A DNA stretch of 64,000 nucleotides from a bacterium (lineage in GTDB: Bacteria; Armatimonadota; UBA5829). Shown piece after piece: positions 2,883 to 54,667 of this stretch. The DNA lies in assembly GCA_021373255.1 (NCBI GenBank), contig JAJFTD010000199.1, positions 611-64,610 on the forward strand, read 5' to 3'. The first letter of the stretch is position 1. Every line of letters begins with the position of its first letter. The notes under the pieces were generated by a model that saw nothing but the letters and a program-made list of their open reading frames with translations, did no database searches and was not told the DNA's origin. The translations under genes and the position numbers were made by a program.

Positions 2883-3556
2883 TGACCAAGAGCCGAATCT
2901 GCGACTACTGTGGCCTGCCGTTTACGGGCAACGGTTACTCTCCCGATGGTGAGCGCCACTACTGCTGCTATGGATGCCATCTTGTCCATCAGATAGTCCA
3001 TGCCAAGTGTGAGGAAGGATTCGCTACTTGGCTTCTTCTCCGCTTAGGTATCGGCGCGTTCCTCGCAATGAACGTGATGATGCTGAGCCTTGTGCTCTAC
3101 ACCACTTCCGAAGCGGATCTTGGCGTAGCAGAAGTTCAGGGGATCCGCTGGGCGATGTTTATCCTTTCTACCCAAGTTCTAGTCATTCTCGGAAGCCCTT
3201 TCATTCTTGGCGGGCTAAGAGAACTCAGGCGAGGTCGGATCGGAATGGATATGGCCGGCGACGGTATAAACGACGCGCCAGCGCTTGCCGATGCTGATGT
3301 AGGCATAGCTATCGGAGGTGGGACCGATCTTGCCAGACAATCGAGTGATGTTACGCTGATGGGTGACGATATATCCCGCATCCCCGAGATGCTCGCGCTT
3401 TCCAGATTCACTTATCGAGTGATCAGGCAGAACCTGTTGTGGGCATTTGGTTATAACAGCGTATACTACTGGTCAGAAGTGCGGGCGTTTGCTGAGGTCT
3501 TCTACAAGCCGCTCTCCCAGCAGAACCCAAGCGACCATGCGCGCATGGCGGCTTAA
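2882..3556 (+). pseudogene. heavy-metal P-type ATPase (CopA/ZntA-like) remnant with an internal deletion of the whole catalytic core
   Basis: A Cys-rich N-terminus 'CDYCGLPF...HYCCYGCH' is followed by 2 TM helices ending '...RRGRIGMDM'. The reading frame then jumps directly to the hinge motif '[19 protein letters not shown]' and '[12 protein letters not shown]'. The DKTGT phosphorylation domain and the other domains are absent, about 450 aa in all. The start codon overlaps the upstream stop (TGATG). Confidence 0.6.
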
Positions 3557-4580
3557 GGAGAGACTCGGATACAGGCTTATAGCTGATAGACTGACTGAAC
3601 TTGAAATTCCTACTCCGTCAGGCAAGATGGGCTGGTCAGCATCCACTGTTTATTCTCTCATTGGCGAAAAGGATAAGCTTCTACAATATGCTGGCTACAG
3701 CATCTGGAACAGAAGAAATTGCCAGGACGAGGACGGCGTAGTCAGACGTAGCACTTCCGAGTGGGTTGTCACCCAAGAAGCTCATCCAGCAATCATAAGT
3801 AAAGAAGAATGTGAAGACCTTATTGCATTGGCAAGACAAGTAGACCCCCAGCGCAAGGCAACAAAACCTATTTCACGTTTTGCCCTCTCAAGTGGGCCTA
3901 TGGTGTGTGCTCATTGCGGAAGCAGATATGCAGGGGCAAAGCGCCATGGTGGAGATTATTATGCTTGTGGGGCACACCTCTACAGACGTGGGGCAGGTTG
4001 TGGCAGATCCTGGTATATTCCAAAGGAACAGTTCGAGACACTTATCTTTGAGAAGCTCCTAAGCAGGCTTTCGGATGATAATGGAGATCTTTCACGCTGG
4101 ATTGATGAGGTTAATCAAGAGATAGATGCTGAGTGGGAGAAGTTTGCTGCTACCTCAGCTGAAAGAAGGAAGCAAATAGCCGATCTCGAGAAGCAGATGA
4201 GCAATCTTCTAGATCTTGCTGCATCCGGCACTCTTGTCCCTGAGATGGAGCAGAAGATAAAGGAGATATCAGATGTTATTGCCAGACTAAAGCGTCTGGA
4301 GTCGGTTCCAAGGCCAAGCAGGGTTACGGTTGAGGAGATACGGGAAAGCAGGGATACAATCGTTGCTTCCTTTAGGTCGGCTAAGCCTGGAAGACGAAAG
4401 GCAGTTCTTTCTCAGTATGTGGTTAGGATCAGCGTGGATTCCAATGCTCGTGTCGTTGAGGCCCAGTTGGTAGACCCGAGATGCCCTAAAAAGCAGCGAG
4501 GGTCGTCGGAGTTAACCGACGACCCTCATATACAGTTCAATGGTAGCCCCGAAGGGATTCGAGGGAATGGCCACATTTGA
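3447..4580 (+). pseudogene. large serine recombinase, N-terminally truncated: recombinase domain and zinc ribbon are present, the catalytic resolvase domain is missing
   Basis: Homology to the full recombinase at 22209-23906 begins near 3540 ('[16 protein letters not shown]...PTPSG...LLQYAGYSIWNRR' against 'WRLGEKAGPDVIAKRL...PTPRG...LLQYAGVGIWNRR'). The zinc ribbon 'CAHCGSRY...YYACG' is present. No Y-x-R-V-S catalytic region is found. Confidence 0.65.
4541..4561. repeat. 21-bp direct repeat TGGTAGCCCCGAAGGGATTCG, left copy, putative attL core
   Basis: It is an exact match to 23860-23880. It overlaps the last codons of the truncated recombinase. Confidence 0.7.
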
Positions 4581-7711: not shown

Positions 7712-7723
7712 AGAGGACTACCA

Positions 7724-9244
7724 ATGGCAAGGGAAGACTGGAAAGCAAAGATCGACCGGCTGTGGAACCTGTTCTGGTCGGGAGGCATAGCAAACCCGCT
7801 TTCGGCGATAGAACAGATATCCTATCTGATCTTCCTGAAGCGCCTCTCTGACCTCGACGACCAGGAGATAAAGGACAAGAAGCGTACGGTGTCCAGGTTC
7901 GAGGGGAACGAGCACTGCAAGTGGTCGTACATAAAAGACCTGAGTTCGGCGGATGAGGCGCTGCGAATCGTCCGTGATGAAGTCTTTCCATTCCTCAGAA
8001 GCCCTAAGGTAGGCGATGAGCTCTTCGCGCGAGCGATGCGGGATGCAGTTTTTATCATCCCTAAGCCCTCCCTTCTGCAGGGCGCGATAGACATCATCAA
8101 CGATATCGATATTACCGGGCTCGATGTGGACACTCAGGGCGAGATCTACGAGACTCTACTAGGAGAACTGAGCCAGTCCGGCAAGAACGGCCAGTTCCTG
8201 ACCAAGCGCCATATCGTGCGGACAATTGTGGAACTGGTAGACCCACAGCCTACCGAATACATCTGCGACCCAGCCGCAGGCACTGGTGGCTTCCCTATTG
8301 CTGCGTTCCAGCACATGGCTTACGAACGGACGCCGGGGGACGTGAGGATCAAGCTTCCCGATGGGACTCCACACAATCTGTTTCCGGTCTGGGACGACAA
8401 ACCATCCTGCGCGCAGTTCGTTGGCTACGACTTCGATACCACAATGGCCCGCCTCGGAATGATGAACATGATGCTCCACGGAATCGAGCATCCTTACTTC
8501 CTGTATCAGGATACTCTGTCCAAGACATTCATGCCGGAGCGCTCTAGCTTCGATATAATTCTTACGAATCCACCTTTCACGGGCAGCGTAGATATATCTG
8601 ATGTAAACGAAGACCGAATGCCGATCAAGACGCGAAAGACAGAGCTGCTATTCATTCAGCTCTGCTTGTCCCTGCTCGATATCGGCGGGCGTTGTGCGAT
8701 TATTGTGCCCGAGGGCGTCCTATTCGGCTCAAGCACTGCTCACAAGGATCTCCGCGAAAGACTTGTGAATGAAAATCAGATCGAGGCCGTGATCTCACTC
8801 CCTGCAGGATGCTTCAAGCCGTACACCGGCGTAAAGACTTCCATCCTGTATTTCACGAAGGGCGGCAGCACAGATAGAGTCTGGTTCTACGAGGTTACCG
8901 GCGATGGCTTTACTCTCGACGACAAACGAAATGATGACCCCTCGAACAACGATCTCAAGTACGTGCCCAATGCCTACCGATGCTTTGCGAAAGGTGAGTC
9001 AATTGATTGGAAGTCCGAGGAGGACAAGGCGAAAGCCGAGGCCCGGCAGTGGTGGGGGGAGTTGGAGCAGATCGTTGAAAGAGGTTACAATCTGACCGCT
9101 GGGGCTTATGCGCCAGTGATCCACGTCGCAGCGGAGCACGACAAACCGCGAGATATTATCCAACGCATAAGGAGTCTTGAGGCAGATATATCGGATAGAC
9201 TGGATCAGATTGACGTAGCCATTCTGGAGGCTACAGCCGAATGA
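7724..9244 (+). CDS. hsdM: type I RM N6-adenine DNA methyltransferase (HsdM)
   Basis: Carries the SAM motif 'CDPAAGTGGF' and the catalytic 'NPPF' motif. It lies immediately downstream of hsdR. Confidence 0.85.
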   Translation: MAREDWKAKIDRLWNLFWSGGIANPLSAIEQISYLIFLKRLSDLDDQEIKDKKRTVSRFEGNEHCKWSYIKDLSSADEALRIVRDEVFPFLRSPKVGDELFARAMRDAVFIIPKPSLLQGAIDIINDIDITGLDVDTQGEIYETLLGELSQSGKNGQFLTKRHIVRTIVELVDPQPTEYICDPAAGTGGFPIAAFQHMAYERTPGDVRIKLPDGTPHNLFPVWDDKPSCAQFVGYDFDTTMARLGMMNMMLHGIEHPYFLYQDTLSKTFMPERSSFDIILTNPPFTGSVDISDVNEDRMPIKTRKTELLFIQLCLSLLDIGGRCAIIVPEGVLFGSSTAHKDLRERLVNENQIEAVISLPAGCFKPYTGVKTSILYFTKGGSTDRVWFYEVTGDGFTLDDKRNDDPSNNDLKYVPNAYRCFAKGESIDWKSEEDKAKAEARQWWGELEQIVERGYNLTAGAYAPVIHVAAEHDKPRDIIQRIRSLEADISDRLDQIDVAILEATAE

Positions 9245-11148
9245 TCTCAAACCCTTGGGAGCAGAAGCCCGTCCGTGAAGTATGTGAGTTCATCCGTGGC
9301 TTAACATTTAGTCCGTCCGATGTAACAACATACCAGTCTGATAACAACATTGCGTGTATGCGCACGAAGAATGTTCAGAGCCGACTTGACCTATCTGACA
9401 CCATTTATGTACCAAGAGAGCTAGTTCGGGATCCAAAACAGATGCTTCGGCGTGGGGACATGCTCATATCCGTCGCTAACAGCAGTGAGCAAGTCGGTAA
9501 GTGTTGCCTCGTTGAGGAGTTGCCTTTTGAAGCTACACTTGGTGGATTCATTGCGGCCGCAAGAGCTGATGAAGCCTTGATGGCACCGCGTTTCCTCTAC
9601 TACTGGCTGAGTTCGCCGTGGATTCAGGCAAAGCTACGGCGGACGGCTCGAAAAACAACTAACATAGCGAACCTGCCATTGAGCGATGTTCAACGCTTGA
9701 TTATGCCTGTACCTCCCCTTGCGGAACAGCACAGCATCGTCGATATCCTCGATGCCGCCGATGAAGCCCGCCGCCTACGCGCTGAAGCTGATGGGGAGAT
9801 GAAGAGACTCATCCCGGCGCTGTTTGATGAGATGTTTGGAGACCCGGGTGTAACTTCGAAACAACGCGAACTAATCGAATGCGCGCATTTTGTTAGCGGA
9901 GGCACTCCTTCGAAGACCGAACCACGCTACTGGTCCGGCAATGTGCCTTGGGTATCACCCAAAGACATGAAGGTCGAGGAGCTTTGGGATGCGCAGGACC
10001 ACATCAATGCAGAAGCGGTTCAGTCTGCTGGACTCAAAGTGATTCCACAAGATAGCGTCTTGATCGTCGTGAGAGGTATGATACTGGCACATACGTTGCC
10101 GATTGGACTGAACAGAGTTCCAGTTACTATCAATCAAGATATGAAAGGCCTAATGCCTCGCTCGAATGTGAGTCCAGAGTTTCTGCAGTGGGCACTGCTT
10201 GCCCAGCGTGCGGAGATACTACGAAGCGTGCGCACCGCAGCCCACGGAACTAAGCGGTTGGAAACTGATTGGCTCACCAGTATCCGTTTGCACATTCCCC
10301 CGCGCCCGCTCCAGCGCCAGTTTGCTGCTCATGTCACAGAAATCCGCGCCATCCAAGACCAGCAGGCAAAGAGCCGTGAGGAACTGGACGCGCTATTCGA
10401 GTCTCTATTGCATCGAGCACTTGCGGGAGAGCTGACCGGAGGGACGGCCGAGACACAGACGTGGGCCGGGGCAGATATGCACGGACGTGACTTGACGAAT
10501 TTCACTCTCACAGGCAAAACCATGCGAAGAGCCAACTTGAAAGGCAGCAGATTGTGCGGAGCAATGCTTGCTTCAGCCGATCTTACCGAAGCAGTTCTGG
10601 AACACGCCGATCTTTCTGGTGCAAACTTGGCGGATGCCCAGTTGGGCTGGACAAAACTTAGGGGCGTGAACTTGCAAGATGCTAATCTTGAGAATGCCAG
10701 TCTAATCGGTGCCGACCTGCGGGATTCCAGCTTGGTTGGATGTAAGCTTTCTGGCGCTAATCTGACGTTGGCAAGGTTGGATAACCTTGATCTTTCCATG
10801 CTTGACCTAACGAATGTCAATCTGCGCGGTTCCAGTCGCGACGGATGCAAGATAGGCGATCTACACTTGGCAAGCGCTAAGCGTCGCCCTATTTGGTGGA
10901 GACTTTCAGATAGCCAGCGTTCAGTATGGAGCGCTATCATGCTTATCAAAGGGATATTCGAGGTGAAAGATGTGCTGGACGAACTTCGCTATTATCCTGG
11001 AGACTGGTCCAATAGCGAGCATATTCGTGGCACGCTCGATCTACTGGTGAGCCTGGCTGTACTGATAAAGGTGGACCGACGCGAAGCGTTTGGCTGGCGT
11101 AGATTCGATCCGGACACAGACCAGGAGGTAGTCATTGAGGATATATAA
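9241..11148 (+). CDS. hsdS: type I RM specificity subunit (HsdS) fused to a C-terminal pentapeptide-repeat domain
   Basis: Two target-recognition domains are separated by the conserved 'LPPLAEQHSIVDILD...' region and followed by 'LPPRPLQRQFAAHV...'. Then come 17 consecutive A(D/N)LXX pentapeptides (about 10573-10830) and roughly 105 aa of unknown sequence. The start overlaps the hsdM stop (ATGA). Confidence 0.75.
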   Translation: MISNPWEQKPVREVCEFIRGLTFSPSDVTTYQSDNNIACMRTKNVQSRLDLSDTIYVPRELVRDPKQMLRRGDMLISVANSSEQVGKCCLVEELPFEATLGGFIAAARADEALMAPRFLYYWLSSPWIQAKLRRTARKTTNIANLPLSDVQRLIMPVPPLAEQHSIVDILDAADEARRLRAEADGEMKRLIPALFDEMFGDPGVTSKQRELIECAHFVSGGTPSKTEPRYWSGNVPWVSPKDMKVEELWDAQDHINAEAVQSAGLKVIPQDSVLIVVRGMILAHTLPIGLNRVPVTINQDMKGLMPRSNVSPEFLQWALLAQRAEILRSVRTAAHGTKRLETDWLTSIRLHIPPRPLQRQFAAHVTEIRAIQDQQAKSREELDALFESLLHRALAGELTGGTAETQTWAGADMHGRDLTNFTLTGKTMRRANLKGSRLCGAMLASADLTEAVLEHADLSGANLADAQLGWTKLRGVNLQDANLENASLIGADLRDSSLVGCKLSGANLTLARLDNLDLSMLDLTNVNLRGSSRDGCKIGDLHLASAKRRPIWWRLSDSQRSVWSAIMLIKGIFEVKDVLDELRYYPGDWSNSEHIRGTLDLLVSLAVLIKVDRREAFGWRRFDPDTDQEVVIEDI

Positions 11149-12724
11149 GTTGTGGTTAGAGGACTACTACAACCTCAAGGATTGCACCATCCGCTTCAGG
11201 GACTGCGACTCGATATATGGGTCCGCCAGTATAAGGTTTTTTGTTGGGCTTAATGGGTCAGGGAAATCGCGAGCACTTGAGGCCATCGGCCTCATATTCA
11301 GCCACCTCTCCGCTGACCGCTGTCCTGGGATCGGTTTCGAAATAGATTATGAGCTGAATGGAAGGCAGATCCGCGTTTCTACTCGCAAGGGAAAGATCCT
11401 TGACAGGATCGGCGTTGCACTGATGACTCGAGAGTCGGCAGACGCCGAATGGGAGGATCAGGAAGTTTGGGCTTCGTCCGGCACCGGCATTGTGCCCACC
11501 CTAGTGGTAGGCTACTCTACGGGTCCGACAACGGGTCTGCCCTGGACAATGGTCCAGTCAATCGACAAACGCGCGAAGGACATCCGCGAACCAGAGTCCA
11601 GATCTGGAGGCGATTACTCCACTGAGGAACTGGCTGAGGATCAGCAGAAATCTGCCGACCAACAAGATGTCTACTATGCCGAGTCCAACACGATCTTCTT
11701 GGGTGGCGATGACGCGCTATGTGCAGTGATACCTCTACTTGCCCACGATGGGGTCGCGCCGGAAGAGGTAAAGCGTTACAAGCGTCGACGTAATGGCGTG
11801 ATGGATCGGGTCGGGCTTGACCGCGATGAGCCGCTTCAGGCCTTTTCCCTGCTAGTTGCGGGAGACTGGAGAACAAAGCTCTCCCCACGGCGGAGGACAG
11901 CGCTTAGTCGCCTGTTGCGTCGAGCGCACGGCATAGTCCCGGTTGACGTAGATTCTACTGATAGCGTGCCTCGAACTTCAGACAGCGAGGAAGCACTATC
12001 TGACTTCTGCGCGGCATTCGACATTGACCCGGAATTTCAGGACGTGGTCCTGAAGAAGCTCTATCCAAGACCTCTGGCATTCTTTCGTGAGCTGCTAGCT
12101 TGGAAACGCCAAGGCGCGCTTAGGGAGATCCACTTGGTGCTAAAGAAAAGCGACCCGACCGTCAGGGCACTCTTGCCGGAAAACGCCCTCTCGGACGGCG
12201 AGTACTTATACCTTGGCAGGAACGCCTTGCTGCTGATGGTGCGTGAGACGCCCGAGAGTCTGGTCCTGTTCGACGAACCGGATACACATTACAATGACCA
12301 GTGGAAGAAGGAGATGGTTCAGGACATTAGGCGTTGCCTTAGGGATGTAGACCCCGGATACTCCAAGAGCAGCTATCTGACTGAGGTCTTGGTAGCTACT
12401 CACTCCGACCTAACTCTGACTGATGCCGACCCGAGACAAGTTTACTACTTCGATAAGGGCCAGGTGCGCCCGTCGGTCCCAATCCTCTCATTTGCTGCCG
12501 ACAGAGATCAGGTATCGAAAGCTCTTTCAAATTCCGATGGATCGGTGCGCAGCTACTCGGAGCTGATGGTGGAACGCGCTCTAAGAGGAAAGAGCGAAGA
12601 GCGTGTAAGGGAACTACTGGATATTACCGGCCCTGGATTCACGCGCTACTTGCTCCGCAGGAAACTGGCTAGTCTAACTGGCGATAGCAATTCCGGAGGC
12701 GAAGATGCTTCTTCGTCTGAATAG
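11135..12724 (+). CDS. AAA_15/AAA_21-type ABC-like ATPase, Septu PtuA-like
   Basis: Walker A is 'GLNGSGKS'. Walker B and the D-loop are 'LVLFDEPDTH...VATHS'. The start is TTG, with an RBS 'AGGAGG' 6 nt upstream. The gene is followed by an overlapping HNH gene. Confidence 0.55.
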   Translation: MRIYKLWLEDYYNLKDCTIRFRDCDSIYGSASIRFFVGLNGSGKSRALEAIGLIFSHLSADRCPGIGFEIDYELNGRQIRVSTRKGKILDRIGVALMTRESADAEWEDQEVWASSGTGIVPTLVVGYSTGPTTGLPWTMVQSIDKRAKDIREPESRSGGDYSTEELAEDQQKSADQQDVYYAESNTIFLGGDDALCAVIPLLAHDGVAPEEVKRYKRRRNGVMDRVGLDRDEPLQAFSLLVAGDWRTKLSPRRRTALSRLLRRAHGIVPVDVDSTDSVPRTSDSEEALSDFCAAFDIDPEFQDVVLKKLYPRPLAFFRELLAWKRQGALREIHLVLKKSDPTVRALLPENALSDGEYLYLGRNALLLMVRETPESLVLFDEPDTHYNDQWKKEMVQDIRRCLRDVDPGYSKSSYLTEVLVATHSDLTLTDADPRQVYYFDKGQVRPSVPILSFAADRDQVSKALSNSDGSVRSYSELMVERALRGKSEERVRELLDITGPGFTRYLLRRKLASLTGDSNSGGEDASSSE

Positions 12725-13769
12725 ACCAACTTGCCAGCATGAGTTACGGTGCGTCTCTTGCATGCTCAGTCAGGTATTTGGCTATCTGGCAGAGCAGGAG
12801 AGCACAGCTCTTGACAAAGATGATCTAGAGAAAGCGGTCCACGTGTCAGCGGTCTTGCTTGGCCGGCCGAAGTTCATTGAATATCTCAATACGATTTTGC
12901 AGGAGAGCATGGATGATCGAAAGTGCCTTTGGAACGCCTTTCTCCACGATGTCGACTACCTGAGTCAGAGGACCAGCGCGGAGTTCACACTGGCGTTCGA
13001 CACGTTGCCGGAGAGCATACGTGCCACCACGCGCGAGCTGCTGGGTTGGCTCTATGACGATGTGTTTGTAGATGGATGTTTTCGTGGACTGCCCACCGCT
13101 AATGGGAAGGACCTTAACCGTGCTGTCTATTTCGATTCGCACGAAAAGGCCAACCCCCGGGCATCCAAGATCTGCCCGGTGTGCCTGCAGCCTATCAACG
13201 AGCTAGCCAACGCTGAATGCGATCACTTTCTACCGAGAAACCATTATCCTGCCCTGGCGATCCATCCCGATAATCTGGCCTTTGCCTGCGGCGGATGTAA
13301 TGGCAAATATAAACTAGCGCAGGACCCTCTCAGGGAGGGAACTACAGGGAGTCGGTGTCTTCTTGATAGCTACCTACCATATGAGCGCCCGGCTGAGGAC
13401 GAAGTTGATCTGCAGTTTCAAGTGGACAGCACGTTTCGCACTGCCACGCTGTTTGTGGCGCATCCGCAAGATGACGGACACGCAAGTGAGCGCCTAGGGA
13501 ATCTCGAAAGGCTCTACAGACTATCTAGGAGATTCAGCAGTTTCTTACCTGACACGTACTGCGAGCTTGCGGATCAGATACGGATCGCCATAGGTGAGGG
13601 GCGCGAAAGGGACGTGGTGCTAGGCCAACTGCAGAGCATAGGCAGATCACGCCTGCCGGACTACTACCTGAAGAGCCGGCTGGCGAGGTGGATTGCTGGC
13701 ACTGATTTTGACCAGTTCTATCAGTGCTACCTAGATCCCGACTGGATAGTCTCCTGGAGGCGAAGATGA
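12705..13769 (+). CDS. HNH endonuclease, Septu PtuB-like
   Basis: The HNH signature is 'CPVCLQPINELANAECDHFLP...HPDNLAFACGGCN'. The gene overlaps the ATPase gene by 20 nt. Confidence 0.55.
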   Translation: MLLRLNRPTCQHELRCVSCMLSQVFGYLAEQESTALDKDDLEKAVHVSAVLLGRPKFIEYLNTILQESMDDRKCLWNAFLHDVDYLSQRTSAEFTLAFDTLPESIRATTRELLGWLYDDVFVDGCFRGLPTANGKDLNRAVYFDSHEKANPRASKICPVCLQPINELANAECDHFLPRNHYPALAIHPDNLAFACGGCNGKYKLAQDPLREGTTGSRCLLDSYLPYERPAEDEVDLQFQVDSTFRTATLFVAHPQDDGHASERLGNLERLYRLSRRFSSFLPDTYCELADQIRIAIGEGRERDVVLGQLQSIGRSRLPDYYLKSRLARWIAGTDFDQFYQCYLDPDWIVSWRRR

Positions 13770-14671
13770 GCGATATCAAGCTATTCCGCATGGACAAGAA
13801 CTCCGTAACTGAGATCAAAGGCACATCGGTGGCTTTGGAGAAATCCCTGCAAGTCCTGATAGAGGAGCACCTTGAGGAGTTCTTGGGAGTCCGGTTCCTG
13901 GCAAGTGAGTTCACGACTGGCCCCAAACACGGCGGCCGCATCGACACATTAGGCATCGACGAAAACGGCTGCCCGGTGATTATCGAATATAAGCGGGCTA
14001 TCAACGAGAACGTTATCAATCAGGGCCTGTTCTATCTCGATTGGCTGCTGGATCATACGGGCGAGTTCACCTTACTCGTAATGAACAAGCTGGGGAAGGA
14101 CGTTGCCGATTCTATCGCTTGGAACATACCAAGGCTGCTGTGCATTGCCGGTGATTTCACCAAGTATGACGAGCACGCAGTCCAGCAGATCGGCCGCAAC
14201 ATCGAGCTCATTCGTTACCGGCACTATGGCGACCTGTTGCTACTCGACTTGGTAAACGCGGCCCGCACAGAATCCGTCCAGGAGTCAGCGCAACCCAGTG
14301 GGGGGAAGCAGAAGACCTGGGATAAGACCGTGTCTGAGCAGTTGGAGCAGGCCGACCAAGGCACAAAAGACCGCTTTGAGAGTATCAAGGCTTACCTGCT
14401 GGCCTTGGGCGACGACGTCCAGATGAACACGCTCAAGCTCTATGTGGCGTTCAAGAAGATCAAGAATTTCGTGTGCGTGCAGGTCCAGCCAAAAGTCATC
14501 ACGCTGTATCTCAGGCTAGACCCTGCGTCGGTTGAGATAGAAGACGGCTTCACAAGAGACGTCAGCAAGATTGGACACTGGGGCACTGGCGACTTGGAAG
14601 TGGTCATTCGCTCTGACGATGACTTTGAGAAAGCACAACCCTTATTGGCGAAGGCCTACGAGTTAAGCTAG
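13766..14671 (+). CDS. PD-(D/E)xK nuclease-fold protein with a C-terminal domain that resembles DUF5655 from memory
   Basis: The core 'GGRIDTLGIDENGCPVIIEYKR' gives D...E-x-K. The RBS and start context 'GGAGGCGAAGATG' is identical to that of the HNH gene. Confidence 0.45.
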   Translation: MSDIKLFRMDKNSVTEIKGTSVALEKSLQVLIEEHLEEFLGVRFLASEFTTGPKHGGRIDTLGIDENGCPVIIEYKRAINENVINQGLFYLDWLLDHTGEFTLLVMNKLGKDVADSIAWNIPRLLCIAGDFTKYDEHAVQQIGRNIELIRYRHYGDLLLLDLVNAARTESVQESAQPSGGKQKTWDKTVSEQLEQADQGTKDRFESIKAYLLALGDDVQMNTLKLYVAFKKIKNFVCVQVQPKVITLYLRLDPASVEIEDGFTRDVSKIGHWGTGDLEVVIRSDDDFEKAQPLLAKAYELS

Positions 14672-14699
14672 CATCCCGCAGGCAAGGAGAACCGAACAG

Positions 14700-15578
14700 A
14701 TGGGCCAGTTGAACTACCGCAAACACGAGCCGTTATCGCTGAAGAATCACCCAGATTTCGACGAGAAACGGCTCCAGGGCGTAATCGAAGAAGACCCCTC
14801 CATACTTGGACTCGGCGATCTGGAGGTCAGGGACGTAGAGCGAATCCAGCCCAAGGCGGGGCGGCTCGATCTGCTGCTCCGAGATCCCGAGACGGGGAAG
14901 CGCTACGAGGTCGAGATCATGCTCGGCGCGACTGACGAAAGCCACATCATCAGAACCATTGAATACTGGGACATCGAGCGAAAGCGTTACCCCCAGTATG
15001 ATCACTGCGCTGTGATCGTGGCCGAATGTGTCAATTCCAGATTCCTCAACGTGATCGGTCTCTTCAACAGTGCCATTCCAGTCATCGCAATACAACTCAA
15101 TGCCCTGAAGCTCGGTGATGACATAGTTCTCAGTTTCACGAAGGTCATTGACGAGGCCGCCTTGGGACTGGACGACGAAGACGAAGGCTCTGGCGGTAAG
15201 AGTGTCGACCGAGCTTACTGGGAGACAAAGGGCTCGAAGAAGTCGGTGGCGATTGTCGATGAATGCCTGGAGATCCTTCGAGAAGTTGATCCCCAATTGG
15301 GGCTAAATTACAACAAGAACTACATTGGCTTGGCCAATAGGCACGGCGTTAACAACTTTGTAGTGTTCCGCGCCAAGAAGAACTTCATCCGCACCGAGGC
15401 TAGGGTGCCCGACCAAGAGTCCTGGAAGATTCGGCTTGAGGAGGCTGGTATTGTGGTGCTGCCTGGCGTCACGATTCGAGAGAGGCTGCATTTCCGCTTG
15501 ACCAGCAAAGACATCAAAGCGAATCGCGAAATGCTGAAGGAGCTCTTCCAGACGGCGTACGCCAAAGATCAGGAATAG
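14700..15578 (+). CDS. paralogous nuclease-like protein ('GRLDLLLRD...YEVEI') with a similar C-terminal domain
   Basis: Its architecture parallels the preceding gene. An RBS 'AAGGAG' is present. Confidence 0.4.
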   Translation: MGQLNYRKHEPLSLKNHPDFDEKRLQGVIEEDPSILGLGDLEVRDVERIQPKAGRLDLLLRDPETGKRYEVEIMLGATDESHIIRTIEYWDIERKRYPQYDHCAVIVAECVNSRFLNVIGLFNSAIPVIAIQLNALKLGDDIVLSFTKVIDEAALGLDDEDEGSGGKSVDRAYWETKGSKKSVAIVDECLEILREVDPQLGLNYNKNYIGLANRHGVNNFVVFRAKKNFIRTEARVPDQESWKIRLEEAGIVVLPGVTIRERLHFRLTSKDIKANREMLKELFQTAYAKDQE

Positions 15579-15644: not shown

Positions 15645-15977
15645 GTGAAACAGAAGCAAGTCATGAACGTCGACCGACCGACATTGACCTTACACGAGGC
15701 GATGGTACAGATACTCAGCAAGTGCGCCGACCAGACGGCTGAACATGTATACCTGGCTTCGGAGATAAGGCGGCAGACTCTCTACTGGCAGAATGACGGC
15801 AGCGCGGCCCCTTCTGGCCAGATTGCCGTAAGAGCCAGGAATTACCCGGACCTGTTCGAGAAAATTCTGGCTGATCAAGTTAGAGGCCAGAGGGCAAAGA
15901 TAAGGCTCAGGTATGGGTCTGACAGCACTGGCACCGACGTGTGGACCCGTGATCATTGCACAAGAGAACTGGAGTGA
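15645..15977 (+). CDS. hypothetical small protein
   Basis: ORF only. No motif recognised. Confidence 0.3.
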   Translation: MKQKQVMNVDRPTLTLHEAMVQILSKCADQTAEHVYLASEIRRQTLYWQNDGSAAPSGQIAVRARNYPDLFEKILADQVRGQRAKIRLRYGSDSTGTDVWTRDHCTRELE

Positions 15978-16009
15978 ACTCAAGTAGCCGCGCTCATTGA
16001 GGCGGGTGA

Positions 16010-17773
16010 ATGACAACTATGGAAACCCCGGACCTTGGTGAACAAATGGACTATGCCAAGACAATAGGAGAACTGGGCGATGTAGTCATGCTTGCGGCCC
16101 ACTCAATGCATGCTAAGCTCGACATCAGCGTTATTCCGCCAATGCGTCGCGTAGCTTGGCCTGCTTGGGATGGCTTTCTGCCCTGGCGATATCCTGACGA
16201 AGCTTATGAAAGCATGGCTGTGTTAGTACGAACAGCGGGCCGGTCGGATGACTGGCTCAGGATGGGGTTCACCGGTCAATCGGGAGCGTCCTCCTACGCG
16301 GCGGAAGAGCACCTGCGCACGTGGAACACCCGTCGCAGCAAGGACCCGGACAAGGCAGCATTTGCCGACGATGTGTGCCGCAACCGATGGCCGCTTGTGG
16401 GTATTGACGAGCTGGCTAACCGTGTGGACGGGCTCGCACGGTATCTTGAAAAGAATGCACCATCGCTGCAGCTTACTGGGTTTCCAGAAACGAGATACCA
16501 GGACTCATTCTGGTTTCATGCCGGATTTGCCACAGTCTATCCAACAAGACTCCCCGTGTACGTTCTGCATCATGCAAGCCCCGCAGACACCTACACGTAC
16601 TTGTGGCCCCGCCAGCCGGCTGCCAGTCTTGACGTCGGTGAGTTGCGGACTCTATTACCTACCGCATTTGGTGAGGGTCCCGGGTTCTGGTATGGTTCGG
16701 GCTTTCGCGCTTACACCTGTGACTGTGAGTTGGTGCAGTGTGTTCCGTACCCTCAGTCGGCTCTATTGGAGTGTTTTACGAGCGCAGATGAGTTGTTGAT
16801 CCCGCGTCTGCGGACGAAGGTCATTGAAATCGGTCGTGCGATTCTTGCGGAACTGTCTAGTTCTCTAACCTCAAGAAACCCGCAGAGCCTTAGACATCGA
16901 TGCGTATCGATACTGACCGAAAGCCTTGATGCGAATGAGTTCGACAGTCTGGCGCTGGCGGATTATGGGATGACCCACAGCCTGGGGCTTGGTTACTCCG
17001 CACTGGGGTGCTACAATCTGGTTCACGGGGGTTTCCTCAGCAACCTCATCACGCTGATTGGCCATTGCGAGGAAGAACTTGCGGTCGGCCGCCTCTGGCA
17101 GACTCGACAGGCTATTGCCGGCGCTTTCTCCAGTGCCATTGCATTCGATGGTTTCGCTCCCGTGCGGTTCTGGTATGACGAAATTGATGGAACAGAGGAT
17201 CAGATCGCTGTCGACCGGGCATATGAAGTGTTCCACTCTCGCGCAAGCCAAGAGAGGGCATTCTGGGACTCATTCCGCCGTTGGATGATTGGGGTTCGGG
17301 ATGAGTTCTACACAGAGATATTTGGGGAGCGAGTCAGACGCCGCAACCAGCCCGAGTTTGAGGCCTATATGCGACAGATGGCAAGACTGGCAGCGAGTTC
17401 CGTAGAACTGACAGGCCAGCTTCCACAGAGCCGGGTCTTTCTGGAAGGTCAAGCTGATACTTGCACTTCTGTCCAGCCCACCATTAACCAGCCTGACCAA
17501 GGCGGCTCGAGGCACCAGTTCCGCCACTGGGACAACTATCGCCAAGTCGAGCGAGATGGCGTCACATATTCCCTTTCCCCCGCGCAGGCTCAGGCCGTCA
17601 GAGTACTTCTCGAAGCACGCGAGGCAGGAGAACAAACCTTATCGGCAGCCACGCTTCTTTCCCGTATGGGGGAACTTGCTCCACTAAGAATTAGCGAGAT
17701 ATTCAGAAGCAATGATCCTCGTAAAGCATTGGTCAAACGGATCGCCAAAGACTCCTATGAGCTGAATATCTGA
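16010..17773 (+). CDS. hypothetical protein of 587 aa, function unknown
   Basis: A long ORF in the same orientation as the element cargo. No recognisable motif. Confidence 0.5.
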   Translation: MTTMETPDLGEQMDYAKTIGELGDVVMLAAHSMHAKLDISVIPPMRRVAWPAWDGFLPWRYPDEAYESMAVLVRTAGRSDDWLRMGFTGQSGASSYAAEEHLRTWNTRRSKDPDKAAFADDVCRNRWPLVGIDELANRVDGLARYLEKNAPSLQLTGFPETRYQDSFWFHAGFATVYPTRLPVYVLHHASPADTYTYLWPRQPAASLDVGELRTLLPTAFGEGPGFWYGSGFRAYTCDCELVQCVPYPQSALLECFTSADELLIPRLRTKVIEIGRAILAELSSSLTSRNPQSLRHRCVSILTESLDANEFDSLALADYGMTHSLGLGYSALGCYNLVHGGFLSNLITLIGHCEEELAVGRLWQTRQAIAGAFSSAIAFDGFAPVRFWYDEIDGTEDQIAVDRAYEVFHSRASQERAFWDSFRRWMIGVRDEFYTEIFGERVRRRNQPEFEAYMRQMARLAASSVELTGQLPQSRVFLEGQADTCTSVQPTINQPDQGGSRHQFRHWDNYRQVERDGVTYSLSPAQAQAVRVLLEAREAGEQTLSAATLLSRMGELAPLRISEIFRSNDPRKALVKRIAKDSYELNI

Positions 17774-17902
17774 TCTCCGAAGCAGTTACGCCTCAATTAC
17801 GCTCCAATAACGCCCGACCTACGCCTAATGACTCCTGCTTTGCCGCTATGCTGAAGATGTGCATGGCCCGGCAAGAGTCCACGCATACAATCTCCTCCTG
17901 AA

Positions 17903-18277
17903 TTGGGAGGATTAGAAGCCCTGAGAGAGCCTTGCCGGGCCTGCCTCTCGGGGCTTTTCTACTTCTCTGTAAGGCGATTAACGATGTGTGGTAAGCATCA
18001 GGAAATCAAAGTGATCATGGAGTTGGCGGATTCCGCAATCCCGTCGGATGCGGACACTGTCGCTGACGCGCTCGCCCTCGACTTGCAGTCGGACGTCGTG
18101 ACGCGCTGGAGCGACGAAGTCCGGGAGGCCATCGCTTGCTCCAAGCGCATTGCAAATCCACTGAGCCCGGTGCAGGCCAACTTGGCTGCGCAGAGAAGAG
18201 ACGAGATTCAAGCCAGGATCACCTTACTAGAGAGGGAGTTGCTGGAACTAAGGAGCGTAGACTATGAGCATAAATAG
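17903..18277 (+). CDS. hypothetical small protein
   Basis: The ORF ends by overlapping the start of the primase gene. Confidence 0.3.
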   Translation: MGGLEALREPCRACLSGLFYFSVRRLTMCGKHQEIKVIMELADSAIPSDADTVADALALDLQSDVVTRWSDEVREAIACSKRIANPLSPVQANLAAQRRDEIQARITLLERELLELRSVDYEHK

Positions 18278-20993
18278 AGAAGTGGTTACGGCAGTCGAAG
18301 CGGCGCTCACGGCTATCACTGAGTCTGGACAGGTAGTCGAACTGCGAGTCCTCGACTACATGCGGCCAGGCTCAAGCTACCCCTGCACGATGTCGGGCTA
18401 CTTTGATGACTACCGGGCAATGGCCGAAGAGGCCGCTAAGCTCACGCCGCACGCTTCGGGAGTTTACTTCACCCCGAACCCCGTGAAGCCTGAACTGCTT
18501 GCCCGCGTCTGTAACAAGACGCGGGCTATGGGAAAGGGTGACAGCACAACTTCTGACAAGGATGTCATCCGGCGAAGGTGGTTCCTTATCGACTGTGACG
18601 CTGCACGAGTAAGCGGCATATCCGCAAGCGATGAAGAACACGCGGCGGCCATCAGCAGAGCTGAGACTATCCGGACGGCCTTGAGCGGGGAAGGATGGCC
18701 GGAACCGATACTTGCGGATTCGGGGAATGGCGGACACCTGATGTATCGCGTTGACATTCCGACAGATGATAAAGGGCTTGTGAAAGCGTGTCTTGAGGCT
18801 TTGGCGCAGCGTTTCAACAGCGACGGGGTACACGTGGACACCGCTGTGTTCAATCCCGCCCGAATCTGGAAGTTGCCCGGCACGCTTGCCCGCAAAGGCG
18901 AAGACATGCCCGGCAGACCCCATAGGTTAGCTAAGCTGTTGAACGTGCCCGAACCACTGGAAGTGGTTGCCGCTGGGCTGCTTCAAACACTTGCTGAGAC
19001 AGCCAATGCCGAAGTGCCTGCCATCGAGCATCCGATTGCCGGCGGGTTTGATCTTGTGTCTTGGATATCAAGCCATCTGGGCGCAGCTTCGCATAAGCGA
19101 ACAGCAGAGGGCGAAGTATGGACAATCGAGGTGTGCCCATTCAATCCAGAGCACCGCCGGGGTGAGGCGTTCATCATCCGCCGCGTCGATGGCACGATCG
19201 GCGCGGGCTGCAAGCACAACTCCTGCGAATGGGGGTGGCGAGAACTGCGGGAGAGATTCGAGCCAGGCTGCTATGATCGAGCACCGGAGATTTCCGCACG
19301 CACCGAAACGGAGTTCCGAAGACCAGACTTCCCTCAAAGCGACTTGGACAACGCGGAGTACTTCGTCACGCGGCACGGACGTAACGTGCGGTTCAACGTC
19401 GATACCGCGCAGTGGCACGTCTGGAATGAAGGGCTGTGGGACGTCGACGGCAAGGGCAACGTGAAGCGACTTGTGGCTGAGTCCGTGCGGTCGATGCACG
19501 CTCTTCTGCCCAACATTACCAACTTCAAGCAACGCGAGGCGCTCTTCCGCCACATCCATACATCGGAAAGCCGTTCCCGGCTTGAGGCTATTGAGAGCTT
19601 GGCACAGAGCAGGGATGGCATTCCTATCCAGAGCGCCGAGCTTAACTGTGACCCGATGCTTCTGAACGTCAGGAACGGCACAATCGACCTGAGAACAGGC
19701 GAGCTGAAACAGCATCAACGTGGTGACTTGATCTCGAAGCTCTGTCCTGTTGCGTATGATCGGGAAGCACAGTGTCCGAGGTGGATGCAGTTTCTTGAAG
19801 AAGTGTTTCAGGGCAACGCTGATCTGATCGGGTTTGCGAAGCGTTCAGTAGGCAACTGGCTTACGGGTGACTGCCGTGAGGAAACCGCTTGGGTGCTCTA
19901 TGGCAAGGCTCAGACCGGCAAGAGCAAGTTCCTCGCAGTGATACGCGCGATCCTTGGCGACTACGCGGCGACAGCGGCCATGACGACATTTATGGGATCG
20001 GGGGAACGCAATACGTATGATCTTGCCGACCTTGCAGGAAGGAGGTTCGTGACGGCATCAGAGGCGAGTGACAGCGAAACGTTCAACGAGCCGCTGCTAA
20101 AAGCGCTCACAGGCAGAGACGCTATAAAGTGCAGACCGATCTACGGCCGCCCGATGGAGTATCTGCCACAATTCAAGATCGTGTTCGCGACAAACGAGCT
20201 TCCACGCATCAAGTCTCAGGGCCTGGACATGCGGCGGCGGCTGAAGGTGATACCGTTCCGCCAGCGTTTCTATGACCCGGATGAAGGCAGACAGCCCGTC
20301 AAAGATGACCGATTGCTCGAAAAGCTCACCAAGGAACTGCCCGGGGTACTGCAGTGGGCGGTAGAAGGGTGCCTTGAATGGCAGCGTGAGGGCTTGGGCG
20401 TGCCTGCCTGCGTCAAAGCAGAGATCAAGTCCATATTCGAGCAGCAAGACCCACTTGCCGAGTTTCTTGAGGAGTGCTGCGTTATCGAGCCAGCCGCACT
20501 GGTAAGGACCTCTGACCTCTACCAAGCACTAGGAGAGTGGAGCGAATCGAAGGGCATTGAGCCGCCTTTCAAGAACACGCAGACGCTCAGCCGAAGCCTC
20601 ACCAAGCGCGACGAAATCGACTCGATCCGCGACTGGACGGGCCAGAGGGTGTTTCGAGGAATTGGTCTCTTGTCGCAATTGACGCAACATGGCAATTCCT
20701 GCAAACCCTCTCACGAGGGGGATTCTTGCGAGGGGGTCTGCGCAAACAGCCCAGATGCGTCAATTGCGTCAGACGACGAGAATACCGATGCACTTGTCTA
20801 CGCTTGCGGAGCGTGCAAAGCACAGGTTTGGCTCACCGACTACAAGCCCCAAGTCTACACTTACTCATGCGAGTCGTGTGGTCATGATGGTATAGTGACT
20901 CACTGTGACTACCGGTTTTGGCTAGGTCATCGAAGTGCTGATACGGCAACAGCAGGTGTACAGCAACAAAGCGGGGAATTGCGCGGGAGGTAA
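18264..20993 (+). CDS. bifunctional primase-polymerase fused to a D5/P4-type SF3 helicase, with a C-terminal zinc ribbon
   Basis: The Prim-Pol-like motif is 'SGNGGHLMYRVDIP'. Walker A of the SF3 helicase is 'GKAQTGKSKF'. The C-terminal zinc ribbon is 'CGACKAQVW...CESCGHDG'. Confidence 0.75.
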   Translation: MSINREVVTAVEAALTAITESGQVVELRVLDYMRPGSSYPCTMSGYFDDYRAMAEEAAKLTPHASGVYFTPNPVKPELLARVCNKTRAMGKGDSTTSDKDVIRRRWFLIDCDAARVSGISASDEEHAAAISRAETIRTALSGEGWPEPILADSGNGGHLMYRVDIPTDDKGLVKACLEALAQRFNSDGVHVDTAVFNPARIWKLPGTLARKGEDMPGRPHRLAKLLNVPEPLEVVAAGLLQTLAETANAEVPAIEHPIAGGFDLVSWISSHLGAASHKRTAEGEVWTIEVCPFNPEHRRGEAFIIRRVDGTIGAGCKHNSCEWGWRELRERFEPGCYDRAPEISARTETEFRRPDFPQSDLDNAEYFVTRHGRNVRFNVDTAQWHVWNEGLWDVDGKGNVKRLVAESVRSMHALLPNITNFKQREALFRHIHTSESRSRLEAIESLAQSRDGIPIQSAELNCDPMLLNVRNGTIDLRTGELKQHQRGDLISKLCPVAYDREAQCPRWMQFLEEVFQGNADLIGFAKRSVGNWLTGDCREETAWVLYGKAQTGKSKFLAVIRAILGDYAATAAMTTFMGSGERNTYDLADLAGRRFVTASEASDSETFNEPLLKALTGRDAIKCRPIYGRPMEYLPQFKIVFATNELPRIKSQGLDMRRRLKVIPFRQRFYDPDEGRQPVKDDRLLEKLTKELPGVLQWAVEGCLEWQREGLGVPACVKAEIKSIFEQQDPLAEFLEECCVIEPAALVRTSDLYQALGEWSESKGIEPPFKNTQTLSRSLTKRDEIDSIRDWTGQRVFRGIGLLSQLTQHGNSCKPSHEGDSCEGVCANSPDASIASDDENTDALVYACGACKAQVWLTDYKPQVYTYSCESCGHDGIVTHCDYRFWLGHRSADTATAGVQQQSGELRGR

Positions 20994-22208: not shown

Positions 22209-23906
22209 ATGGCACTACTTGATCTTGTCAACAACTCTGATGTCAGGTCGGCGGAGACAAAGGCACAGCAGAAAGCCCTCGCTTACATCCGCGTTTCGCA
22301 CGAAGATTCGGCTGACAGGGGAGCCAGTCTTGAGACCCAGCGGCGCGACATCGAGTGCTACGCCGCACGTGAAGGTATTGAGGTTGTCGAATGGTTCGAG
22401 GAGCCCGGCAAGTCAGCATTCAAAGACTCAGCAAAACGCCCGGAGTTCCAGCGAGTCATCAGAAATGCCAAGGAGTGTTCCTCTATCTCAATTATCCTCG
22501 TCTGGAAATCCGATAGGTTCAGCCGCGACCGGTATCTGGCTAGTGCGGTAAAGGGCGAACTCCAGAAAGCAGGGGTCCGAGTGCTGTCCGTTACCGAGCC
22601 TTACGATTCGAGAACCACGTCTGGTATCGTGATGGAATCCGTAACCGACGCAATCAACCAAGTGCGGTCTATGGAGATTGGCTTGGTCACGCACCGAAGC
22701 CTTCTGGTAAATTGCGAAATGCGCGACCCGGCAACTGGCTGGGCATACAAGAACGGTGGAATGGCGCAGTTTGGATACCGCAACCTGCGCGTATATGCGG
22801 ACGTAGATCGGAAGTATCAACGTATCAGTCATTGCGTCTGGGAGCTTGACGATGAGATAGTTGCTGGCAAGCCCATACACGAGTGGGCTCGCGTAGTCTT
22901 GCTTGATTGGCGGCTCGGAGAAAAGGCCGGGCCGGACGTCATCGCCAAGCGACTAACACAGGCGGGCGTGCCCACACCGCGCGGTCGAAAGGCCTGGTCT
23001 GACAGCAGCGTCAACTACCTTCTGATGCCGGATAAGCTTCTTCAGTATGCCGGCGTTGGAATATGGAACAGGCGAGACTTTCGCACTGGCGGCAAGTCGT
23101 GGAAGGACAAAGAAGACTGGAAGGTCGTGGAGAATGCCCATCCCGCAATTATCACGATGGAGCAAGCGGAAGCGATACACGCCATCCGTGAGCAGCGCAC
23201 ATGCCGGCCTGGCAAGCGGGGCAAGAAGCCCTCACCATTCGTTCTATCGGGTGGTCTGTTGGTCTGCTCGCATTGCGGTGCGAACTACGCCGGAAGAAAC
23301 AAGCACTCCGTGGACTACTACGTATGCGGTGCTCAAATCTACCGAGACGGAGCCGACTGCGACACTCCCTGGTATATCAGACGTGAAGATGCTGAAAATG
23401 CCGCCTTTGATTGCATACAGAAGGTGCTATCATCCAGCTCAAAGCACACCCTAAGAGCGGTGAACGCATATAACAAGTGGGTGGACTCTCAACTGTCCCT
23501 CTACGGTTCGACCGAAAACGCCAGGCGCACTGAGATCAAGCGTCTGCGGTCGGAGGTCGACAACCTTATGCAATCACTTGCCGCAGGCATAGACCCCAGC
23601 ACAATCAGTGCGGCCATCAATGAGCGCGCGCAGCACATTCAGAAGCTTGAAGCTCTTGGCGACGTGGAACTACCTCAGAAGATCACGACGAAGGAACTGG
23701 ATGCTCAAGCAGCAGAAGTGCGACAGATCGCGGAGAACTGCCCGCCTGATAAGAAGAGGCTGATTCTCAGGAAGTATATTGACTCAATGCGGGTAGTAGC
23801 AGAAGAGCGGACCATCAAAGTGATGATCCGCCCTCTACCCACGATTTGTGGTCATTGGTTGGTAGCCCCGAAGGGATTCGTTGGCCTGACCAAACGTTCA
23901 GATTGA
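22209..23906 (+). CDS. large serine recombinase (integrase), full length
   Basis: Catalytic motif 'YIRVSHEDS...R', followed by a recombinase domain and the zinc ribbon 'CSHCGANY...YYVCG'. The last 15 codons overlap the right copy of the direct repeat. Confidence 0.85.
   Translation: MALLDLVNNSDVRSAETKAQQKALAYIRVSHEDSADRGASLETQRRDIECYAAREGIEVVEWFEEPGKSAFKDSAKRPEFQRVIRNAKECSSISIILVWKSDRFSRDRYLASAVKGELQKAGVRVLSVTEPYDSRTTSGIVMESVTDAINQVRSMEIGLVTHRSLLVNCEMRDPATGWAYKNGGMAQFGYRNLRVYADVDRKYQRISHCVWELDDEIVAGKPIHEWARVVLLDWRLGEKAGPDVIAKRLTQAGVPTPRGRKAWSDSSVNYLLMPDKLLQYAGVGIWNRRDFRTGGKSWKDKEDWKVVENAHPAIITMEQAEAIHAIREQRTCRPGKRGKKPSPFVLSGGLLVCSHCGANYAGRNKHSVDYYVCGAQIYRDGADCDTPWYIRREDAENAAFDCIQKVLSSSSKHTLRAVNAYNKWVDSQLSLYGSTENARRTEIKRLRSEVDNLMQSLAAGIDPSTISAAINERAQHIQKLEALGDVELPQKITTKELDAQAAEVRQIAENCPPDKKRLILRKYIDSMRVVAEERTIKVMIRPLPTICGHWLVAPKGFVGLTKRSD
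23860..23880. repeat. 21-bp direct repeat TGGTAGCCCCGAAGGGATTCG, right copy, putative attR core
   Basis: It is an exact match to 4541-4561. Here it is translated in a different frame ('VAPKGFV' against 'GSPEGIR'). Confidence 0.7.
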
Positions 23907-50282: not shown

Positions 50283-50497
50283 TGTCGAGAAGCATCCATA
50301 CCAACCGCAAGGACATCATCGAACTTGCCCAGTGGAAATACGCCGATCCCGAAGTTCGACGAGCTAAGGCTCAAGAACTATGGGCAGATATTCGCCGAAA
50401 GCGAAGGGCAAAGCGACAGGTGAAAGGCGAACGTGCCACCGAAGATGCGATGGTTGCATCCGCAGAGGTCGAGGCCGTGCCCTATATCAGTGCATGA
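50282..50497 (+). CDS. small basic ORF, possibly a frameshifted N-terminus of the following gene
   Basis: It starts in TAATG overlap with the hen1 stop. It overlaps the 50433 ORF in a different frame. Confidence 0.25.
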   Translation: MSRSIHTNRKDIIELAQWKYADPEVRRAKAQELWADIRRKRRAKRQVKGERATEDAMVASAEVEAVPYISA

Positions 50498-54635: not shown

Positions 54636-54667
54636 GCACACGAGCTACGCCCCCCGATGGAGAAACA

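Follow-up and report, generated by a model that had tools for sequence, protein, structure and literature searches.

A type I restriction-modification operon with a PtuA/PtuB-like ATPase–HNH pair and two further single-gene additions in an Armatimonadota genome

Do the four genes that follow hsdR, hsdM and hsdS in a 64,000-nucleotide (nt) stretch of a 130,878-bp contig in an Armatimonadota metagenome-assembled genome (the window, whose own positions are used throughout) form one defence system with them, or are they separate systems that share an operon? The four encode an ABC-type ATPase, an HNH nuclease and two proteins with predicted nuclease-like domains, called here gene 3 and gene 4. An earlier note on this DNA had read the first two as Septu (PtuA/PtuB), genes 3 and 4 as paralogues that may form an undescribed two-gene module, and the whole as a possible composite defence operon. 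We find that the ATPase–HNH pair belongs to a conserved five-gene unit with the restriction-modification (RM) genes, and that genes 3 and 4 are independent single-gene add-ons rather than a pair.

The ATPase–HNH pair and the type I RM genes

Seven co-oriented genes occupy positions 4946–15578 on the + strand, their ends overlapping or nearly abutting (Table 1). The type I RM system is complete, since HsdR, HsdM and HsdS are all present, co-oriented and provided with full Pfam signatures. Overlaps of 4 nt join hsdM to hsdS, of 14 nt hsdS to the ATPase gene, of 20 nt the ATPase gene to the HNH gene, and of 4 nt (ATGA) the HNH gene to gene 3; a 28-nt gap, with no overlap, separates gene 3 from gene 4. 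The last four genes are located as the earlier note had placed them, with the same starts and overlaps and the orientation of hsdRMS. Its description of an ATPase gene of 529 amino acids (aa) with a TTG start, a ribosome-binding site (AGGAGG, 6 nt upstream of the start) and Walker A and B motifs, overlapping a 354-aa HNH gene, was confirmed as well. The block is laid out for co-transcription with hsdRMS, and its reading as a composite defence operon is supported. A scan for promoters and terminators inside the block gave nothing above the shuffled expectation.

Linkage of the pair to RM genes was examined in 80 metagenomic loci that carry ATPase relatives (23–48% identity), whose open reading frames (ORFs) were searched with the window proteins; counts were limited to loci whose contig reaches far enough. 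A homologue of the HNH gene was found directly downstream of the ATPase relative in 59 of 63 loci, hsdS directly upstream in 37 of 48, and hsdM within 8 kb in 38 of 40. The median junction was a 4-nt overlap on both sides of the ATPase gene. In the closest relative (locus L085, 48% identity), the HNH gene is the last of an operon with the order hsdR-hsdM-hsdS-ATPase-HNH; this hsdR-hsdM-...-ATPase-HNH order recurs on two RefSeq plasmids. No relative of gene 3 or gene 4 was present in the 80 ATPase-centred loci. Given the linkage of the ATPase to HNH, hsdM and hsdS genes, hsdR-hsdM-hsdS-ATPase-HNH is a conserved five-gene unit, and the ATPase–HNH pair of this clade nearly always comes next in a type I RM operon after hsdS, or after a second methylase.

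The ATPase carries Walker A (GLNGSGKS), ABC signature (LSDGE) and Walker B (LFDEPD) motifs and an H-loop, and in an alignment of 27 family members G38-N-G-x-G-K-S45, S353-D-G-E, D380-E381 and H423 were invariant. It matched the PADLOC PtuA model PDLC00293 with an E value of 1.5e-32, model position 1 falling at residue 1, and PADLOC PtuA models matched all 27 members. Comparison of the family profile with solved structures placed PtuA chains at the top (Septu 8ee4 and the retron Ec78/I-A effectors, 7e-13), with Rad50, SMC and AriA ranking below them. Intact Walker A, signature, Walker B and H-loop, together with this kinship, are what is expected of a PtuA protein. The family is of modest size (53 clusters at E ≤ 1e-30 and 965 at E ≤ 1e-3, in a search of 1.84 billion representatives).

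For the HNH protein, alignment of homologues revealed six invariant residues, C157, C160, H174, N190, C195 and C198, which form a CxxC...H...N...CxxC pattern. The protein matched the PADLOC models PDC-M01B (4e-13, partial) and, weakly, PtuB (2.5e-7), and no NCBIfam model at E ≤ 0.01. At the level of the family, PDC-M62B and PDC-M01B matched 19 of 19 members and PtuB 17 of 19, and the only solved structures retrieved by the family profile were PtuB chains (9e-5 to 8e-3). With its 354 aa, the protein exceeds the solved PtuB chains (216–232 aa) by about 140 aa, and the flanking regions are conserved within the clade. A GGAGG site and the N-termini of 18 aligned homologues speak for the start used here; the public annotation gives a protein of 335 aa that starts at 12762, 19 codons downstream of 12705. 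The possibility that the HNH protein is an orphan was discarded: a word-indexed search had returned only the protein itself and one weak match, and phmmer and jackhmmer searches of the ATPase-linked loci recovered 43–59 homologues.

The identification of the pair as Septu needs to be qualified. The likeness stood up: as in Septu, including the retron Ec78/Eco7 version, an ABC/SMC-type ATPase gene is followed by an overlapping HNH nuclease gene, and PtuA and PtuB are the nearest solved relatives by profile search. Like its retron counterpart, the window pair is joined to another system and does not stand alone. What did not hold is a free-standing Septu. Whereas Septu is free-standing or retron-linked, the window pair overlaps hsdS and belongs to an RM-bound clade whose relatives are linked to hsdM and hsdS, and its HNH protein has extra conserved N- and C-terminal regions and only weak similarity (9e-5) to PtuB. 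Septu has been described as a stand-alone pair, and PtuAB as having been co-opted by a retron (Ec78) as a sequestered effector (PMC12819146).

The PADLOC candidates PDC-M01 and PDC-M62 and the NCBIfam family TIGR04435 likewise have an ATPase and HNH cassette, which lies within type I RM, BREX or DISARM loci or is added on to them. On a Kovacikia plasmid, a layout like that of the window includes an ATPase named by the annotation pipeline PGAP 'restriction system-associated AAA family ATPase' (TIGR04435), followed by a partner of about 360 aa named 'hypothetical'. The window ATPase differs from these families in its modest scores: the match to PDC-M01A was weak (7.5e-7), and that to the NCBIfam model TIGR04435 reached 87.1 bits against a cut-off of 300, with a best stretch limited to aa 347–445. 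Judged by these scores, the window ATPase is best taken as a sister clade of TIGR04435, not a member of it. The five-gene arrangement is thus recognisable in existing resources, yet uncharacterised. Literature searches returned nothing on PDC-S18 (the family of gene 3, see below) or TIGR04435, and for DUF5655 only one unrelated genome report.

PrrC is the established model of a latent effector guarding a restriction enzyme. PrrC/EcoprrI and RloC have in common with the window that a type I RM operon carries the gene for an ABC ATPase-linked nuclease, and PrrC hardly ever occurs outside such RM systems (10.1101/2024.01.29.577857). In PrrC, one chain contains everything, including an anticodon-nuclease domain, whereas the ATPase and the HNH nuclease of the window are separate proteins; apart from the ABC fold, they showed no sequence relation to PrrC.

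The protein encoded just upstream of the ATPase was inspected for shared features. In the window HsdS, the core is followed by a pentapeptide-repeat insert (approximately nt 10440–10920) and then by a C-terminal tail (approximately nt 10906–11145). This tail (aa 556–635) is common to the HsdS of loci L085 and L092. A C-terminal extension of at least 90 aa was present in 37 of 49 HsdS proteins encoded directly upstream of the ATPase, and where hsdS was not the immediate neighbour, a methylase-like protein of 630–690 aa stood there, with a C-terminus resembling the HsdS tails. When the last 75 residues of 50 upstream proteins were aligned, an L..L...G-hydrophobic stretch with an aromatic-basic pair behind it came up repeatedly. 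This motif, written post hoc as a regular expression, matched 33 of the 50 upstream proteins and 40 of 532 other ORFs; a jackhmmer search started from the window HsdS tail did not spread beyond L085. The motif may be a lead towards an adaptor or docking domain, and it is not a test of one. The pentapeptide insert is unique to the window among the 49 ATPase-linked HsdS. Pentapeptide-repeat proteins are known DNA mimics, and the role of such repeats in HsdS, the DNA-recognition subunit, is puzzling.

Genes 3 and 4

Gene 3 is an already catalogued single-gene candidate, PDC-S18. It matched the PADLOC model PDLC04946 with an E value of 1.3e-146, aa 1–299 aligning with positions 18–321 of a model of 365, and is a full-length member. 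It also matched Pfam DUF5655 (PF18899) with 48 bits (1.4e-12), above the gathering threshold of 24. The residues D60...E74-x-K76, which fit the D...(D/E)-x-K pattern of PD-(D/E)xK nucleases, are invariant in the family. Foldseek comparison of an AlphaFold model (predicted local distance difference test, pLDDT, 76.5) led from the N-terminal domain to NucS/EndoMS (4e-4) and to SduA and the Shedu nuclease domain, and from the C-terminal domain to YjbR. A DUF4263 match was not found, and the NucS/EndoMS equivalog NF003270 scored 17.3 bits against a cut-off of 216, which places the proteins of genes 3 and 4 outside NucS. A gene 3 relative with 76% identity was found alone among enolase, lipid and other housekeeping genes; of 18 further loci with gene 3 relatives, about four had type I RM genes nearby.

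Gene 4 belongs to a family without a name in the collections that were searched: no PADLOC, NCBIfam or PHROG model matched it. Its Pfam DUF5655 score, 16.3 bits, is below the threshold of 24, and DUF5655 appeared weakly in 8 of 22 relatives (best 2.8e-4). Its conserved motif is D57...E70-V-E72-I-M74, without a lysine at the canonical position. The AlphaFold model (pLDDT 85.3) matched EndoMS (4e-4) and restriction enzymes through its N-terminal domain, and YdhG, DUF1801 and YjbR through its C-terminal domain (Foldseek). The family comprises at least 8000 proteins with 55–77% identity in many phyla, and the species-representative genomes that contain it number at least 561. In a set of 146 genes immediately adjacent to gene 4 relatives, the families that came up most often were of restriction or defence types (MmeI-type, HsdR, Mrr, AbiEii, DruE, DISARM-like and helicase-MZB), with housekeeping genes among them; a relative with 77% identity lies in a DISARM-like island, without gene 3. 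The association of the family with defence is moderate.

The catalytic-like motifs seen earlier, D...E-x-K in gene 3 and D...EVEI in gene 4, are thus both present and conserved. Structure prediction gave both proteins a like two-domain architecture, with the same order of secondary-structure elements and a disordered linker between the domains: genes 3 and 4 are each predicted to consist of a NucS-like nuclease domain and a YjbR/DUF5655-like domain. NucS/EndoMS is the best solved match (about 4e-4) of both N-terminal domain models, with the difference that in genes 3 and 4 the nuclease domain is N-terminal and is followed by the YjbR/DUF1801-like domain, whereas in NucS/EndoMS the nuclease domain is C-terminal and a dimerisation domain precedes it. 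The claim of a shared nuclease-like core and C-terminal domain stands at the level of predicted folds and not at that of sequence or profile, where similarity was not significant. The E value of gene 3 versus gene 4 was 0.35 by BLASTP and 0.03–0.13 by hhalign, which is no better than controls with mismatched domains; hhalign inputs were alignments of 22–24 sequences, and also alignments of 205 and 141 sequences split by domain. Direct paralogy, as proposed in the earlier note, was accordingly rejected, agreement being confined to predicted folds and the order of secondary structure. Relative to PDC-S18, gene 4 has the same predicted two-domain build as gene 3, but it matches no PDC-S18 model, and E-x-K is replaced by E-x-E-x-M.

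The idea that gene 3 and gene 4 are recent paralogues and make up a dedicated two-gene nuclease module, undescribed until now, is in our view largely refuted and very improbable. The two are adjacent, their predicted architecture is alike and their best Protein Data Bank matches are the same, and one locus has relatives of both side by side. Gene 3 is, however, a known family, and the pair is essentially absent elsewhere: a gene 3 relative stood beside a gene 4 relative in one of 80 loci (L051), and no gene 4 relative was found near gene 3 relatives in 19 distinct neighbourhoods. The closest relatives of each, at 76–77% identity, lack the other, and neither sequence nor profile comparison found significant similarity between the two. 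The 771 ORFs around gene 4 relatives fell into 708 clusters, which means that gene 4 lacks a conserved partner. In L051, from the Bacteroidales, a distant gene 3 relative (E 1e-25) adjoins the gene 4 relative at 9923–11973 of the locus, in reversed order with respect to the window. Genes 3 and 4 are therefore independent single-gene add-ons. A phage origin was also considered and set aside, as relatives are rare in viral contigs (18 for gene 3 and 4 for gene 4, of 2.9 million) and PHROG gave no match.

An identical 13-nt start context, GGAGGCGAAGATG, had been reported for the HNH gene and gene 3. It occurs in exactly two copies in the window, one at each of the two starts; the observation is weaker than was stated, as repeated 13-mers are frequent by chance (66 in the window). 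The pattern GGAGG-N5-ATG has only three sites on the + strand of the window, of which two share the 5-nt spacer. The shared context is mildly non-random, and no more. It could be a common optimised initiation region, or the trace of a cassette insertion.

The island and its surroundings

A 21-nt exact direct repeat, TGGTAGCCCCGAAGGGATTCG, lies on both sides of the block (Table 1), in the 3' ends of two serine recombinase genes, of which the left is 5'-truncated and the right intact; the reading frame differs between the two copies, and their flanking sequences are unrelated. Considered along with the P4-type primase and the recombinase, the repeats are probably the boundaries of an integrative island of 19.3 kb, to which the entire defence block, the primase and the recombinase belong.

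Between gene 4 and the primase gene (15645–18277) are three co-oriented ORFs of 110 aa (GTG start), 587 aa and 124 aa. None had a Pfam or PHROG match or a relative in the fetched loci, and the 587-aa ORF, the only one of the three scanned there, matched nothing in PADLOC or NCBIfam. To the left, at approximately 3100–3556, the remnant of a heavy-metal P-type ATPase gene, with an internal deletion that fuses an early segment to a later one and truncated after AFGYN, abuts a serine recombinase gene that lacks the catalytic N-terminal domain, which suggests older, decayed insertions at this site. Further to the right, the G+C content of the 49000–57000 segment is 0.56–0.59 and its GC skew strongly positive, the preceding stretch being at 0.48–0.52. 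Searches for tRNA, rRNA and Rfam families gave no match anywhere in the window.

Table 1. Features of the block and of the island in the window
Feature	Position	Strand	Basis or remarks
21-nt direct repeat TGGTAGCCCCGAAGGGATTCG, left copy	4541..4561	+	In 3' end of 5'-truncated serine recombinase gene
hsdR, type I restriction subunit, 921 aa	4946..7711	+	Pfam ResIII 2e-37, EcoEI_R_C 9e-25, HSDR_N, Helicase_C
hsdM, type I N6-adenine methyltransferase, 506 aa	7724..9244	+	Pfam N6_Mtase 1e-55, HsdM_N 4e-14
hsdS, specificity subunit, 635 aa	9241..11148	+	Pfam Methylase_S 1.5e-18, Pentapeptide 1.8e-23
PtuA-like ABC ATPase, 529 aa, TTG start	11135..12724	+	PADLOC PtuA, Protein Data Bank profile matches, invariant motifs
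13-nt start context of HNH gene, GGAGGCGAAGATG	12695..12707	+	Exact match search
HNH nuclease partner, 354 aa, PtuB-like core with extra N- and C-terminal regions	12705..13769	+	PADLOC, Protein Data Bank, motif
Identical 13-nt start context of gene 3, GGAGGCGAAGATG	13756..13768	+	Exact match search
Gene 3, PDC-S18 family, 301 aa from ATG	13766..14671	+	PADLOC PDLC04946, Pfam DUF5655
Gene 4, unannotated family, 292 aa	14700..15578	+	Predicted NucS-like fold and DUF5655/YjbR-like C-terminal domain
P4-family primase/helicase	18264..20993	+	TIGR01613 8e-74, D5_N 8e-31
Large serine recombinase	22209..23906	+	Resolvase 2e-23, Recombinase, Zn_ribbon_recom; weak CcrB/XisF similarity
21-nt direct repeat TGGTAGCCCCGAAGGGATTCG, right copy	23860..23880	+	In 3' end of intact serine recombinase gene

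Proposed function and alternatives

The reading that we favour, and hold to be moderately probable, is that of a composite anti-phage operon on an integrative island, made of the five-gene RM-ATPase-HNH unit, an autonomous gene 3 and an autonomous gene 4. A complete type I RM system would be translationally coupled to the PtuA/PtuB-like pair, and the ATPase–HNH complex would be a back-up effector tied to the restriction complex. Docking would probably proceed via the extra C-terminal tail of the protein encoded just upstream, HsdS in the window. The complex would be kept silent while restriction works; upon neutralisation of the type I enzyme by a phage, it would be released and cut nucleic acid (DNA or tRNA). 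This latent-effector proposal is modelled on two precedents, PrrC/EcoprrI and the PtuAB pair held by retron Ec78. Gene 3 would act separately as a Shedu-like single-protein nuclease, its DUF5655 domain having perhaps a regulatory or nucleic-acid-binding role, and gene 4 would likewise be an autonomous nuclease, or a nucleic-acid sensor if it is catalytically inactive.

Several points weigh against the composite anti-phage operon. The defence function of the block is one that we infer, and PDC-S18 and PDC-M01/M62 are candidates predicted only from their embedding in other systems. The docking and guard steps are proposed by analogy and from a tail motif defined post hoc in the same loci. The linkage figures describe this clade and not all PtuA relatives, the 80 loci being the best of 516, chosen via one peptide pattern. 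As for the two add-ons, gene 4 lacks the canonical active-site lysine and may be no nuclease, about 10% of the immediate neighbours of its relatives are recognisable defence genes and many are housekeeping genes, and both families are unusually conserved for defence genes, with 55–77% identity across phyla.

Three alternatives were weighed against the composite operon. The ATPase–HNH pair might be an ordinary, self-sufficient Septu that shares the operon for co-regulation and co-transfer, with no physical or functional coupling to restriction. Its closest characterised relatives are PtuA and PtuB, described as a stand-alone pair; clustering is common among defence genes, and many of the embedded systems are functional outside their hosts as well. 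Such independence does not sit well with the near-obligate linkage in the clade, with hsdM in 38 of 40 loci and 4-nt overlaps with the upstream RM gene, nor with the recurring extra tail on the upstream protein and the additional conserved regions of the HNH protein, and we regard it as unlikely. The conserved five-gene order and the tight coupling would also be expected if the pair were an integral part of restriction, for instance an auxiliary nuclease or motor that degrades DNA flagged by HsdMS, as in MADS. There, extra genes are required for defence, and mad3 was matched weakly by 24 of 27 members of the ATPase family and mad5 by HsdS (PADLOC). HsdR is, however, complete with its own nuclease and motor domains, so that an extra nuclease is not needed. 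The HsdS match to mad5 was the only mad match among the top matches listed for the six window proteins scanned (ATPase, HNH, genes 3 and 4, HsdS and the 587-aa ORF). Membership of MADS itself was rejected, as the mandatory MAD6, MAD7 and MAD8 were not among the matches listed, and we consider an integral role in restriction quite improbable.

The remaining alternative concerns the add-ons: gene 3, gene 4 or both might be NucS-like DNA-repair or housekeeping nucleases, or genes for mobile-element maintenance. It would account for the high identity across phyla, for the gene 3 relative that lies among enolase and lipid genes and for the many housekeeping neighbours of gene 4, and it fits with PDC-S18 being a candidate by prediction only. 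The proteins are not NucS, however, by score as well as by domain order. Their distribution is patchy and their neighbourhoods hypervariable; the neighbours that recur most belong to RM and defence families, and both the gene 3 relatives beside type I RM genes and the gene 4 relative in the DISARM-like island point to defence. We therefore think this explanation rather improbable. Hidden Markov model comparison led from the ATPase to PtuA, from the HNH protein to PtuB, PDC-M01B and PDC-M62B and from gene 3 to DUF5655, gene 4 staying below threshold; assignment of the pair to a non-defence family, or of genes 3 and 4 to a housekeeping one, would have spoken against the earlier note, and neither was found.

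A more ambitious form of the composite-operon reading can be put forward only tentatively. In this form the five components would be one immune machine, in which a Septu-type pair, co-opted by a type I RM system in parallel to retrons, docks on a C-terminal adaptor of HsdS or of the second methylase-like subunit and provides an abortive-infection back-up against anti-restriction proteins, while gene 4 would be the founding member of a widespread PDC-S18-like single-gene defence family.

Two things are new here, the near-obligate linkage to RM genes with the tail that the upstream proteins share, and the family of gene 4, which is unannotated; most of the other parts are known candidate families. 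The pairing of genes 3 and 4 is a by-product of how the island was put together, and the notion of a paralogue module should not be carried forward. If the proposed wiring of the ATPase–HNH pair to RM is true, it would represent a second recruitment of the generic Septu effector, after that by the retron. The conserved upstream tail provides a concrete hypothesis for docking. Gene 4 points to a large family, with thousands of members in many phyla, that defence, Pfam and NCBI models leave unnamed. The ATPase–HNH pair would be a two-protein counterpart of the PrrC guard, and would help to explain how phages that carry anti-restriction proteins are punished.

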